DNA from: a phage
Strand: one strand, 5' to 3'
Sequence record: OZ346212.1
Length of the DNA: 64,000 nt
Positions 19,445 through 62,657 of the stretch are shown in pieces. Numbering within the stretch: the stretch's first letter is position 1; each line of letters opens with the position of its first letter. The notes beneath the pieces were generated by a model that saw only the letters and a list, made by a program, of their open reading frames with translations, did no database searches and had not been told where the DNA came from. The position numbers were made by a program, and so were the translations under genes.

Positions 19445-20436
19445 AAGCACATAGCCGCCAGATCTCAGAATTTACGTACGCTCACCAGTCTATAGCCTGC
19501 TAAGTATTTATTCCAACCATAGAATAACGGAATAGTCAATACCTGCATAAAATAATTATTCGTGTAAACTGCATAACATAAATCGGCTAGGATGTCAACA
19601 TTTTTCGTAAACAGCTCGAAATTATAACGGTGAGTTATAATAAACAGAGAAATCTTTAGTCGTCTAATGTTTACTGTACATTACTATACTGACTGGAATC
19701 ATTAGATGACTAAGAGAAAGATAAGAAATCATTAACAATGCAATTGTTTTATTCGTAACAATAAGGCAACTATGCAAACGGATGGCATGGCGCGACGGAG
19801 TCGCGACATAATATAAAAGCAGTAACCATCACCCCCGTGATAGTTTGTCTGCAAACTATTAATCAGATCATAGTTGCCTTGTATTTAGTTAATCATGACA
19901 TAACAAGCAAGGCAACTATAGATCTGCTAATAGTTGCCCTGCTTTTATATTATGTCATAGATTATTAGCCTGTTAATTGTTAGTCAGTCAAATCAACAAC
20001 GTTATCATTTCAGTCTTTATTGTTGTTGATCGTTATTGTTATCATGCAAACGAATGGCATGGCTTATCATTTTTGAGTAAACAATCTATACGTGAACAGT
20101 GAGGCAAGTTAGCAGCCGATAGATTAGATATTAACCTGCAGACTTCTGACCGTCTAGACGTCTAAACGCCCACACAACAAGGATTATACATACAATACTG
20201 AATGTAAACAGGGCCGCAAAAATGCTACCATACCACAGATTGTAAATTTTTCATGCAGCACTTGACAAAGAGGAGAACTTAATTTTATCAGGATAGGCAA
20301 GAATGTCAAGGCATGACTGCTCACTAAACAAGCAAACAGTCATGTGTGGGAGGTAAGTGATTGTGGTGGTAGGAAATTTAGTTGAAAGATGTGTTATAGG
20401 TGCTTCCAGCACTTTAGCCGGGCAGCTAATTGTGTG
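19445..20436. other. convergent-transcription junction, AT-rich with hairpins and direct repeats
   Basis: No ORF; palindromes ATAGTTGCCTTG...CAAGGCAACTAT, CGCGAC-gga-GTCGCG, ATAGTTTG-tctg-CAAACTAT; direct repeat ATGCAAACG(G/A)ATGGCATGGC twice. Confidence 0.5.
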
Positions 20437-58594: not shown

Positions 58595-59149
58595 ATGAAA
58601 TACTTTGTAACAAGCGACACACACTTTCTCCACCAGCGGGTCATGGAGTTTGATTCATGTCAAAAACACAGATCTCAGTATGATCACAATCTTGACAGTA
58701 TGAATGCAGGAATCATCGCCGAGTGGAACTCTGTTGTGTCACCTGCAGACACTGTGTTCCACTTGGGAGATATTGCGTGCACTAATGATAAGAATATCAA
58801 CAACTTACTTCCAGATATTCTAAATATGTTGAACGGACATATTATTCTTGTTCGTGGCAACCATGACACAAGGACGACTGTCAGAATTATGAAAGAGTTC
58901 GGTCATGAGGTTGTAGATTATTACGAGCTTCGCCACAACAAGAATTTGATCTGTATGAGCCATTACCAGTTTGCAAAGTGGAACAGAAAGCCTCACGGAT
59001 CAGTCCAACTGTTCGGTCATGCTCACGGAACCACACAACAGTTGTTTGGCAGGCAGCTTGATGTCGGTTGGGATGTGTGGGGGAGACTCTTACCATTAGA
59101 AGAGGCATACCGTATTGCAATGAGTTTTGATATTGACAGCAGGGAGTAA
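58595..59149 (+). CDS. calcineurin-like metallophosphoesterase
   Basis: MPP motifs SDTHF, GDIAC, GNHD; ATG 58595 after GAGGA. Confidence 0.65.
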   Translation: MKYFVTSDTHFLHQRVMEFDSCQKHRSQYDHNLDSMNAGIIAEWNSVVSPADTVFHLGDIACTNDKNINNLLPDILNMLNGHIILVRGNHDTRTTVRIMKEFGHEVVDYYELRHNKNLICMSHYQFAKWNRKPHGSVQLFGHAHGTTQQLFGRQLDVGWDVWGRLLPLEEAYRIAMSFDIDSRE

Positions 59150-59196
59150 TCCCTGCTATTTTAAAGAAAATTGCCACACAAGGAGAATCAGGAGAT

Positions 59197-59547
59197 ATGA
59201 AAGATGGGGATAAGCTGCTATATCTTAAAGTCCCCCTTGAAATACTATCTATGTCAAAAGTTTTGAATGACACAACTGGGGAGGTTGTTGTTCTTGACTT
59301 GTATGACAAGATCGTATACTGCTACCTGCACAACTGGTATAAGCTTGGAGGAAATTCACGCTTCACACCAAGCACAAGGAAAATTGCAGCAGATGTTGGG
59401 ATAAAGAAAACAAAAGCAGCAGCGTGCGTTAAAACTTTAGAATGTGCAGGAGTGGTTGAAACATCCACACAAGGGAGAGGTAAAAGATGCACATTTTCCA
59501 AAGTTTTGCCACCAGAAGAAGTTATTCGGATGTCAACAACTGGTTAG
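59197..59547 (+). CDS. putative HTH DNA-binding protein
   Basis: Helix-turn-helix-like STRKIAADVGIKKTKAAACVKTLECAGVV; immediately upstream of iteron array. Confidence 0.5.
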   Translation: MKDGDKLLYLKVPLEILSMSKVLNDTTGEVVVLDLYDKIVYCYLHNWYKLGGNSRFTPSTRKIAADVGIKKTKAAACVKTLECAGVVETSTQGRGKRCTFSKVLPPEEVIRMSTTG

Positions 59548-59621
59548 ACCAGTAAAAACTTAAATATCTGTACTATAAGGATTCGTATGTTTTATGTTCG
59601 CCATGGAACGGATACTATTAA

Positions 59622-59704
59622 CTGTCCGTGATACGGACACTACTGTCCGTCACGCGGACACATCTGCCCGTAATACGGACACTAACTGTCCGTGATACGG
59701 ACAC
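59622..59704. repeat. four phased palindromic iterons (CTGTCCGTGATACGGACAC, 21-22 bp period)
   Basis: Copies at 59622, 59643, 59664, 59686; each an inverted repeat TGTCCGT-N3-ACGGACA; followed by AT-rich tract to about 59830. Confidence 0.85.
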
Positions 59705-59829
59705 ATAAAGAATATAACTAAAATAACTAAATAATAAAAAATAAAAGATCTAGTACTTATGGTACTAAGTACATATACTTAACTTATGTAGAATATACTA
59801 GATCCTAAGTACCATGTTTTAAATTTATT

Positions 59830-60100
59830 ACTTACTATGGGCAGTGTCGGCCCTTCATTGGCACTCGCCTACGAGGGGGCGAGATGCCGGGCCTCCTTGG
59901 CGCACACAATAACAGAAGTTCATACATGCAGGTCTGTTAACATGTGTGGGAGCGAAGCGATAGCGCAGGCCAAAGGCCGAGCACTGATGTGGACCACCGA
60001 CGAAAGCTTGCCAGCGCCGTAAGGAGTCGGTTGAGAGTCTCCCGCGCGAGCTTGGATGAAGTTTATGTGTGGAAACTGACAAGAAGGCCCCTAAATCGCT
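59830..60100. ncRNA. GC-rich structured non-coding segment (candidate ncRNA, identity unknown)
   Basis: Sharp GC jump in an AT-rich genome; nested hairpins e.g. GGCA-CTCGCC-tacgaggg-GGCGAG-a-TGCC; both-strand ORFs are not protein-like and lack SD. Confidence 0.3.
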
Positions 60101-61062: not shown

Positions 61063-61305
61063 ATGTTTAAGGTTAAGCTCGTTTTTCGTTCCATGAATGA
61101 GGATTATTTAGAAGATGAAGGTGAATTTCGTGCACTGGATGATGCAATAGATTTTGCCAACGACTTAGCTTGTATGAATACGGGTTATGGGCTATGCTGT
61201 TGGGATGGTGGTGTTCAGATCGGTGATAGCAAGATCTTCTACTTCTACCCTGAGCCTGATAACAAACAAATTAAGTATGTTTTATTTATTTGTGCTTTAC
61301 AATGA
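61063..61305 (+). CDS. hypothetical protein (80 aa)
   Basis: Preceded by TTGACA promoter at about 60984. Confidence 0.5.
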   Translation: MFKVKLVFRSMNEDYLEDEGEFRALDDAIDFANDLACMNTGYGLCCWDGGVQIGDSKIFYFYPEPDNKQIKYVLFICALQ

Positions 61306-61329
61306 GGTTGTTTTCGTGTATCATGATGA

Positions 61330-61592
61330 ATATCCAATTTAAAGATGAATTTGATGGCTTTATCTCCGGATGCTTTGAAACAGGGTTCGGAGAAGGCTGA
61401 GTTCCCCTTAGAGGGCTTGATAGTGCACCACACTTAAAATGGTAGGGGCAGCCAGCACATGACGATGTGACCCCAGCCAACCTGTAATAAGGTCGAGCCA
61501 AAGTGCGGTAATGGGCTCTGGTAACCCACTTGTTGGGTCTTGCTGGTCCAGGACGCTGGACAAGTCGCAGGGAATACCACCCTGCGGCGAAC
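61330..61592. other. second GC-rich structured non-coding segment
   Basis: No protein-like ORF on either strand; hairpins TCCAG-gacg-CTGGA, GCAGGG-aatacca-CCCTGC. Confidence 0.3.
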
Positions 61593-61621
61593 TTGACAAT
61601 CAGTATTTGCTATGATAAAAT
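61593..61621 (+). promoter_or_regulatory. sigma70-type promoter (TTGACA-17-TAAAAT)
   Basis: Hexamers 57 nt upstream of ATG 61650. Confidence 0.55.
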
Positions 61622-61649
61622 CCACCTATCACGTGATAATGGAGGAAAC

Positions 61650-61988
61650 ATGGCGGATACAACTAAAAAGCGTCGCCGTAGAGGCAGACCTCTGAAAGAG
61701 GAGTCCAACGCCATTCAGCTAGAGAAGAACATCCTTGATATGAAGGAATCTTTTATAGCGATGGTTCCAGAAGCTCACAAAGTTTTAAGAGAGCTGATGT
61801 TGGACCCGAAAACCAAACAAAATATTCGTCAAAGCATTGCAGAGTATGTTCTTGATAAGGCAGACCGAATGCAGGAAGAATATGATGAGATGTTTGGTGA
61901 AGAGGAAGAGGTGGTAGTAGAAGAGGCTGAAAAACCAGCACCTTTTATGCCATTCACCACAGAAATACAGCCTGTTGGCAATAGTTAA
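61650..61988 (+). CDS. AT-hook-containing acidic protein
   Basis: ATG 61650 after GGAGGA; KKRRRRGRPLK AT-hook-like motif, acidic C-terminal half. Confidence 0.55.
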   Translation: MADTTKKRRRRGRPLKEESNAIQLEKNILDMKESFIAMVPEAHKVLRELMLDPKTKQNIRQSIAEYVLDKADRMQEEYDEMFGEEEEVVVEEAEKPAPFMPFTTEIQPVGNS

Positions 61989-62553: not shown

Positions 62554-62650
62554 GCTAGGTAAGCCCTTTGGCAAGGGCGAGGATTTTTAATCCTGAAAAT
62601 AGACGAGGTAGTCGTTGAATACATAGGTGGTTCGATTCCATCACCTAGCA
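62554..62650 (+). tRNA. atypical 97-nt tRNA-like gene (possibly Lys-UUU with about 29-nt variable region) or pseudo-tRNA
   Basis: Perfect acceptor GCTAGGT/ACCTAGC, D-arm GCCC...GGGC, hairpin with loop TTTTTAA, extra hairpin ACGA-ggtag-TCGT, T-arm GGTGG-TTCGATT-CCATC; no encoded CCA. Confidence 0.35.
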
Positions 62651-62657
62651 CCTTTTT

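Follow-up and report, generated by a model that had tools for sequence, protein, structure and literature searches.

We analysed a 64-kb stretch of phage DNA (sequence record OZ346212.1; hereafter, the window) in which a gene for a small winged helix-turn-helix (wHTH) protein is followed by four palindromic repeats (iterons) and an AT-rich tract, an arrangement that we read as a candidate replication origin with its own origin-binding protein. The window derives from an rV5-like Vequintavirus, a genus of rV5-like myophages with genomes of ~137 kb, and the 2.6 kb around the locus were 98–99.8% identical to ~120 Escherichia phages of this genus. For genome-wide comparisons, the window was joined with the remaining 74 kb from the near-identical phage isim, giving a whole genome of ~138 kb. 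The wHTH protein, gp075 in rV5, carries the label 'putative transcriptional regulator' in GenBank records and 'replication initiation protein' in RefSeq, and some records mark the iteron array as a 'repeat_region' without explanation (Tandem Repeats Finder (TRF)). In the rV5 genome paper, an origin was sought by GC and AT skew, which changed only with transcription direction (PMC3606486), and our literature search found no paper defining a replication origin for Vequintavirinae.

The iteron array and the AT-rich tract

The array comprises four 17-bp palindromes of the form TGTCCGT-N3-ACGGACA with start-to-start spacings of 21, 21 and 22 bp, beginning 75 bp after the gp075 stop codon (Table 1). 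A preliminary description of the window had reported this recurrence downstream of an HTH gene correctly; it had also presented the palindromes as four copies of one sequence, and although four are present they are not identical, copies 2 and 3 differing from the others. The observed number of palindrome matches was reached by none of 100 dinucleotide shuffles, and no other tandem repeat of the window comes near the array in strength (TRF score 110–126 versus at most 42 for others). Elsewhere in the ~138-kb genome, no further copy with up to one mismatch was found. In IMG/VR, the iteron pattern matched isolated palindromes in scattered places and no other such array, which made the scan uninformative.

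Iterons and AT-rich tract are almost invariant within the genus, and the 20 bp directly 5' of iteron 1 vary freely. The iteron sites are conserved across ~119 genomes; the rare substitutions are confined to the 3-bp spacer or to half-site position 7, leaving TGTCCG/CGGACA intact. Iteron number changes by clean unit deletions, with four copies in most genomes, three in CarlMeissner and JES2013, and two in YN3 and navn. Two iterons evidently suffice for a viable phage, a number that matches the two repeats found in other genera.

Table 1 Features of the locus and repeat types beside gp075 homologues (positions in the window)
Feature	Position	Strand	Description
Sigma-70-like promoter	59133-59162	+	TTGACA-18-TATTTT; upstream of wHTH gene; P76 annotated in rV5
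wHTH gene	59197-59547	+	116 aa; rV5 gp075 / ORF79; Bas54 bas54_0212
Spacer, gp075 stop codon to iteron 1	59548-59618		3' 20 bp are the part of the locus most variable in the genus
Iteron 1	59623-59639		CTGTCCGTGATACGGACAC / TGTCCGTGATACGGACA; 0 mismatches, perfect palindrome arms
Iteron 2	59644-59660		CTGTCCGTCACGCGGACAC / TGTCCGTCACGCGGACA; 1 mismatch
Iteron 3	59665-59681		CTGCCCGTAATACGGACAC / TGCCCGTAATACGGACA; 1 mismatch
Iteron 4	59687-59703		CTGTCCGTGATACGGACAC / TGTCCGTGATACGGACA; 0 mismatches, sequence as iteron 1
AT-rich tract, candidate DNA-unwinding element	59705-59834		130 bp, 80.8% AT (19.2% GC); 2 GATC, 4 GTAC
13-mer GATCTTTTATTTT	59738-59750	-	exact match to oriC 13-mer consensus GATCTnTTnTTTT
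GTAC palindromes in AT-rich tract	59752-59815		AGTAC-TTATG-GTACT 59752-59766; inverted repeat 59759-59769 / 59805-59815
GC-rich non-coding element	59837-60100	+	54-63% GC, directly 3' of AT-rich tract; nearly invariant in and confined to the genus
PVP-SE1-type repeats	beside homologue		CTAATTATTCCC-N4/5-GGGAAT
Klebsiella, 4MG, GAP31 and Erwinia types, repeats	beside homologue		AGCCTATGCTCAAATTGA(GCA)
More diverged member of PVP-SE1-type family			repeats changed correspondingly, CGTTTATTCCC

The tract directly 3' of the array, which had been described as ~125 bp of more than 80% AT, measures 130 bp at 80.8% AT, and the AGTAC-ttatg-GTACT palindrome attributed to it is present. No 60-, 100- or 130-bp segment of the window or of the whole genome is richer in AT, the next most AT-rich 130-bp segment in the genome having 25.4% GC versus 19.2% here. 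On its minus strand lies a single 13-mer, the sole exact match in the ~138-kb genome to GATCTnTTnTTTT, which we take to be the consensus of the Escherichia coli oriC 13-mers; oriC itself has three. GTAC occurs four times within 60 bp of the tract (59753–59812), the densest cluster in the window against ~0.24 expected per 130 bp, and these motifs may form a second set of candidate binding sites. Repeats with GGTAC also lie upstream of a distant gp075 homologue (P0011; L126 290–335).

Transcription from P76, the sigma-70-like promoter upstream of the wHTH gene, would cross the gene, the iterons and the AT-rich tract. By scan, no sigma-70-like promoter overlapped the array on either strand or lay in the AT-rich tract, and the curated rV5 promoter list contains none there.

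gp075 and its relatives

Searches with gp075 pointed to replication initiators. The protein matched PHROG 12838 ('replication initiation protein') at E = 5e-80, with weaker matches to other initiator families, and its homologues matched O-like ('replication initiation O-like', weak) and DnaD-like families. HTH_36 was a near-threshold Pfam match and NCBIfam gave no meaningful match; the Pfam family DUF6945 (PF22182) was matched by 14 of 29 gp075 family members at E ≤ 0.01. The best sequence match in the PDB was 4ro3 (E = 3e-6 with the single sequence by phmmer and 8e-6 with the family profile), in an alignment that spans nearly the full length of gp075, whereas generic regulators aligned at the helix-turn-helix only. 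An AlphaFold (AF2) model built from a 29-sequence alignment (predicted local distance difference test score (pLDDT) 80, predicted template modelling score (pTM) 0.76) comprises a beta-hairpin, a long helix and a winged helix, corresponding to an N-terminal domain (NTD) only, with a short C-terminal helix. The top Foldseek match of this model in the PDB was again 4ro3 (template modelling score (TM) 0.67, E = 1e-5), followed by the RepA_N NTDs 4pql, 4pt7 and 5kbj of pSK41 and pTZ2162 (TM ~0.55, E = 5e-4 to 4e-3, 114 aligned columns), of which 5kbj is a Rep–iteron DNA complex; regulators of the MarR, ArsR and CodY types ranked below the RepA_N NTDs. These sequence and model comparisons suggest that gp075 is a winged helix of the RepA_N/PLE-RepA NTD type.

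The 4RO3 structure is the NTD of the RepA protein of PLE from Vibrio cholerae, which binds semi-palindromic iterons in electrophoretic mobility shift assays and was placed in RepA_N by structure, not sequence (Barth et al., NAR 2020; PMC7145576). RepA and the iterons are necessary for PLE replication, which relies on the replisome of phage ICP1, consisting of a Pol-I-type polymerase, the helicase-primase gp4d and a superfamily 1B (SF1B) helicase (PMC7145576). The rV5-like phages encode Pol A, a gp4-like primase-helicase and a PIF1/RecD-type SF1B helicase. The neighbours of gp075 are a phosphoesterase and proteins of unassigned function, and no P-like loader was identified in the rV5-like phages.

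Single-sequence searches of large protein collections retrieved, as close homologues of gp075, almost only members of the genus, at 89.7% identity or above; more distant relatives were reached via synteny together with a mixed alignment. They include a protein of Klebsiella phage VLCpiM5b, which is 33% identical over 48 residues and likewise bears the annotation 'replication initiation protein', and gene 99 of Salmonella phage PVP-SE1. In other Vequintavirinae genera, the diverged homologues adjoin two direct, partly palindromic repeats that differ in sequence from the rV5-like iterons and have a period of 23–25 bp (Table 1). An AT-rich tract follows these repeats, and AAAGATCT motifs are common to those tracts and that of the window. 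The gene is directed away from the array in these genera, an orientation flipped relative to the rV5-like phages, and the repeats adjoin the -35 element of a promoter that is directed into the gene. Further afield, the homologue in an Aeromonas phage is separated by ~250 bp from a 180-bp tract of extreme AT content, ahead of which stands a weak 22-bp repeat pair; no clear iterons were found beside the distant homologues P0009 and P0011, whose contexts were too short or came without DNA. Because the array lies 75 bp 3' of the stop codon in the rV5-like phages and the gene is directed away from it elsewhere, the linkage is not simply that of a gene with its own promoter-operator. Judged from these sequences, what is conserved is the linkage of the protein, its putative cognate repeats and an AT-rich tract; promoter-operator geometry is not.

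The PVP-SE1-like and Klebsiella-type homologues (L006 2282–2638 and L007 2171–2488) are the first genes of an operon for phosphoribosyl pyrophosphate synthetase and nicotinamide phosphoribosyltransferase. Seven of the 29 family members matched the Pfam family 'wHTH-PRTase associated' (PF24409; alignment A3). Distant homologues from an Aeromonas phage and metagenomes (P0009, P0011, P0013 and L012:1896–2279) carry an extra acidic C-terminal tail ending in D-x-x-P-F, which resembles the C-terminal tip of SSB that recruits replication proteins; the rV5-type protein is without this tail.

A candidate replication origin and competing accounts

A transposon-insertion map has been published for Bas54 (phage MaxBurger, a Vequintavirus; bioRxiv 10.1101/2025.11.20.689424), and we checked its coordinates against the MaxBurger sequence. 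The four Bas54 iterons lie at 132650–132730 and the AT-rich tract at 132723–132863 (the locus is at ~65.2 kb in rV5), and all seven TA sites of the tiny open reading frame (ORF) bas54_0213 fall in the array or at its edge. Insertions were recovered at 17 of the 20 TA sites of bas54_0212 (mean count 13.6) and at 4 of the 7 in bas54_0213 (mean count 18.1), both of which were classed as 'Intermediate', whereas flanking genes had mean counts of 135–192 (bioRxiv 10.1101/2025.11.20.689424). Gene and array are each dispensable, and disruption of either costs ~10-fold, to the same degree; the locus accounts for this 'intermediate fitness' pair of features in the Bas54 essentiality map. The phenotype fits a helper origin that can be bypassed, and fits a regulator–operator pair equally well.

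We propose that the locus is a phage replication origin served by its own origin-binding protein, which aids replication and is dispensable in the way that T7 and T4 origins are, and we put the probability of this reading at roughly 0.6. What has been shown is how the sequence is arranged and that it is unique in the genome, together with homology, the predicted fold, comparative conservation and the published transposon phenotype; DNA binding, unwinding, replisome loading and any firing of an origin are inferred. In the proposed mechanism, dimers of gp075 would bind the four palindromic iterons; with half-site centres 10 bp apart and sites 21–22 bp apart, all dimers would sit on one face of the helix. 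The resulting nucleoprotein array would distort the DNA such that the adjacent AT-rich tract with its oriC-type 13-mer opens, possibly helped by read-through transcription from the upstream sigma-70 promoter. A T7-like replisome (Pol A plus the gp4-type primase-helicase) would then load, perhaps together with the PIF1/RecD-type SF1B helicase. Such an origin would speed or time replication, and other routes would have to exist, either another origin or recombination-dependent replication, the latter in a genome that is circularly permuted and terminally redundant.

Of the readings considered, this proposal explains the most: an initiator-type protein, unique phased sites, an adjoining AT extreme of the genome with a 13-mer, the persistence of the AT/GATC tract across genera whose protein and repeats have been exchanged, the flipped orientation in other genera, and the phenotype common to gene and sites. 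The preliminary description had called the architecture that of a canonical origin or of a cooperative operator. Since the nearest characterized relative is an initiator proven to bind iterons, the sites are unique, the AT extreme contains a 13-mer and the module recurs in other genera, the origin half of that statement is favoured; 'canonical' has to be qualified, as gene and array are dispensable and the protein consists of a DNA-binding domain only.

Several findings weigh against an origin. The dispensability of gene and array rules out a sole, essential origin, genus members with only three or two iterons are viable, and another non-coding region, which lacks transposon insertions in Bas54, could be the main origin. 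No exact DnaA box (TTATNCACA) is present at the locus, the three in the window (at 22.7, 36.5 and 43.3 kb) being the number expected by chance, and the IHF consensus was not found at the locus. Pfam RepA_N (PF06970) did not match gp075 at E ≤ 1, and the DUF6945 match of gp075 (27.4 bits, E = 3.8e-6) falls below the gathering cutoff of 28. With 116 residues, gp075 is without the C-terminal domain of all characterized RepA_N initiators, a helicase-recruiting surface is not evident, and the general winged-helix type is also common in transcription factors. Finally, the repeats of PVP-SE1-like phages abut the -35 element of the promoter of the homologue's gene, a placement equally consistent with autoregulation.

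The last of these points belongs to the most serious competitor, under which gp075 would regulate transcription and the four sites would serve it as cooperative operators, with no part in replication. The array could then act as a roadblock or switch for read-through into gp073 and onward, the GC-rich RNA-like element and the tRNAs, or could control an unrecognized promoter in the AT-rich tract. A dimeric wHTH protein with 17-bp palindromes in helical phase is typical of repressors, MarR/ArsR/CodY-type regulators are among the weaker gp075 matches, and the GenBank label agrees. The PVP-SE1-like repeats, directly upstream of the -35 element of a sigma-70-like promoter that reads into the homologue, occupy a classic autoregulatory position; the module is non-essential, and the same mild phenotype on loss of gene or sites is what a regulator and its operator would be expected to give. 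We nevertheless consider this account rather unlikely. The rV5-like array lies 3' of its gene and overlaps no sigma-70-like promoter in our scan or in the rV5 curated list, and the sequences and folds that match best over the full length belong to initiators rather than regulators. An operator leaves unexplained the constant position of the array beside the genome's AT extreme with its 13-mer, and the retention of the AT/GATC tract despite swapped protein and repeats. Moreover, iteron-binding Rep proteins, such as P1 RepA and pSC101 RepA, commonly autoregulate, making the position of the PVP-SE1-like repeats compatible with an origin.

Far less probable is some other cis function of a sequence-specific, RepA-NTD-like binder, such as handcuffing or negative copy-control, a site resembling a centromere, or a decoy or competitor aimed at a satellite or plasmid with a related initiator, the last of which would parallel ICP1, where a RepA-like DNA-binding domain has been turned against PLE. 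A DNA-binding domain that stands alone, with no effector domain attached, would suit an architectural or competitor role, the laboratory strain can host phages that lack a working module, and some homologues have the acidic D-x-x-P-F tail that gp075 lacks. However, the sites stand in the phage's own genome beside its AT extreme and are kept in ~119 genomes, which indicates a cis function for the phage, and their loss costs fitness even in E. coli K-12, for which no satellite is known.

Least credible, and rejected as the principal account, is a packaging site (pac) bound by gp075 as the missing small terminase subunit (TerS). TerS proteins belong to the small HTH proteins and recognize repeated sites close to the gene that encodes them; here TerS is without annotation, and the gene for the large subunit (TerL) lies ~4.3 kb downstream. 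Packaging in the genus is by headful and yields circularly permuted genomes (PMC8407724, PMC13211470), and the database record MG065672 ('Campylobacter phage') begins exactly at iteron 1. Against these points, phages with insertions at 17 of the gene's 20 TA sites are viable, whereas an essential gene would be expected for TerS, the fold predicted for gp075 is RepA_N-like and without an oligomerization coiled coil, linkage to TerL is not conserved (PVP-SE1 gene 99 lies ~20 genes from the terminase region, at the head of the nucleotide/NAD-salvage operon), and an essential small ORF (61647–61988) is nearer the terminase operon.

Among known systems, PLE offers the closest solved relative of gp075, by both sequence and predicted fold. 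In both cases, an initiator gene, putative here, stands beside non-coding semi-palindromic direct repeats, with binding proven for PLE and predicted for gp075, and the same set of phage replisome components is present. PLE RepA differs in having a C-terminal domain, whereas gp075 is an NTD alone; PLE is a satellite that hijacks ICP1, whereas the gp075 module resides in the lytic phage itself; and RepA and iterons are required for PLE replication, whereas loss of the gp075 gene or array costs fitness only. The RepA_N proteins of the staphylococcal multiresistance plasmids pSK41 and pTZ2162 (4PQL, 4PT7 and 5KBJ) share the winged-helix NTD as a full-length fold match, and tandem semi-palindromic iterons that are bound by one dimer each, as proposed for gp075. 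Their iterons are inside repA and those of the rV5-like phages are outside the gene; the plasmid proteins have a host-specific C-terminal domain that is absent in gp075, which Pfam RepA_N leaves unmatched.

The lambda origin likewise has four tandem palindromic iterons (~19 bp), then an AT-rich tract, then a palindrome. Its binder, lambda O, acts as an N-terminal winged-helix dimer, as we propose for gp075, and transcription passes across or near ori-lambda, as it would at the rV5-like locus. Yet ori-lambda is inside the O gene, whereas the rV5-like array is outside the ORF; the C-terminal domain of O recruits P-DnaB, whereas gp075 has no second domain and the rV5-like phages supply a T7-like replisome of their own; and lambda requires both O and ori, unlike the rV5-like phages with gp075 and its array. 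The T7 primary origin and T4 oriF and oriG have an AT-rich element downstream of a promoter and transcription through the origin, and T7 shares the Pol A plus gp4 type of replisome. Loss of T7 or T4 origins costs only fitness or timing, because secondary origins or recombination-dependent replication take over. To our knowledge, these origins use no dedicated iteron-binding protein, whereas the rV5-like locus has a candidate for one. Iteron plasmids (P1, pSC101 and RK2) and oriC share iterons beside an AT-rich DNA-unwinding element with a GATC-containing 13-mer and an adjacent Rep gene, and the PVP-SE1-like repeats abut their promoter as in autoregulated plasmid rep genes. However, plasmid Rep proteins have two winged helices, whereas gp075 is RepA_N-like, the phage locus has no DnaA boxes or IHF sites, and a lytic phage lacks the context of copy control.

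The iteron-origin architecture itself is textbook, and nothing is overturned. New here is an origin candidate in rV5-like phages made up of a RepA_N-like binder and iterons; unusual are the domain-minimal putative initiator and its dispensability. A further, more doubtful idea, which we advance tentatively, is that a stand-alone 116-residue NTD of RepA_N type suffices to fire an origin used by a T7-like replisome, purely by remodelling iteron DNA beside an unwinding element, in which case the SF1B helicase, read-through transcription or both would do the loading. If true, rV5-like phages would provide a minimal, dispensable system for how RepA_N initiators start replication, a question that the PLE study called open, and firing by an NTD alone would explain the use of unrelated SF1B helicases by PLE RepA. 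The rV5-like phages are widely isolated and have been used in E. coli biocontrol and therapy work. The locus gives them a concrete origin candidate with a putative cognate protein, and ties a lytic Gram-negative myophage to the RepA_N/PLE-RepA type of initiator. A defined origin with a 116-residue binder would be useful for phage engineering, for interpreting read depth and for studying the handover from initiators to T7-type replisomes.

Other elements of the window

The GC-rich element directly beyond the AT-rich tract (59837–60100) may be an unannotated structured RNA. It folds with a z-score of -2.0, and RNAalifold predicted a long-range helix (59842–59852 with 59975–59986) containing one C:G to U:A covariation, split 5 versus 5 among 10 genomes. 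Small ORFs annotated over this element tolerate transposon insertions in Bas54. Rfam searches (at gathering thresholds and at E ≤ 10) matched nothing at the locus or its GC-rich flank, returning tRNAs only. A second GC-rich non-coding stretch (61340–61600), downstream of a sigma-70-like promoter (61296–61324), has an RNA fold z-score of -2.54, with none of 200 shuffles folding as well, and no Rfam match.

The non-coding region at 19445–20436 lies between convergent transcription units and contains four ATAGTTGCC motifs in alternating orientation (19765–19938), together with a perfect 18-nt inverted repeat (19805–19822 / 19939–19956). Its Bas54 counterpart (92.8–95.3 kb) is partly homologous, rearranged and longer (2.5 kb), and has no transposon insertions in the published map; the region could be an essential cis site, such as the main origin or pac.

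The ORF at 61647–61988 encodes a 113-residue homologue of bas54_0220 (PHROG 3330, of unassigned function) that is essential in Bas54, with insertions at 1 of 20 TA sites. Its product has a basic N terminus (KKRRRRGRP) and an acidic C-terminal half, and the gene, which lies upstream of tRNAs, spanins and TerL, may encode an unannotated small terminase. At 62554–62652, ARAGORN predicted a 99-nt tRNA with a four-base anticodon (atcc), which Rfam matched weakly as a tRNA (35.5 bits) and GenBank records list as tRNA-OTHER or tRNA-Lys. Eighteen database entries titled 'Campylobacter phage', with Campylobacter jejuni given as host, share more than 95% identity with rV5-like phages of E. coli, and are probably mislabelled or derived from a contaminating phage.

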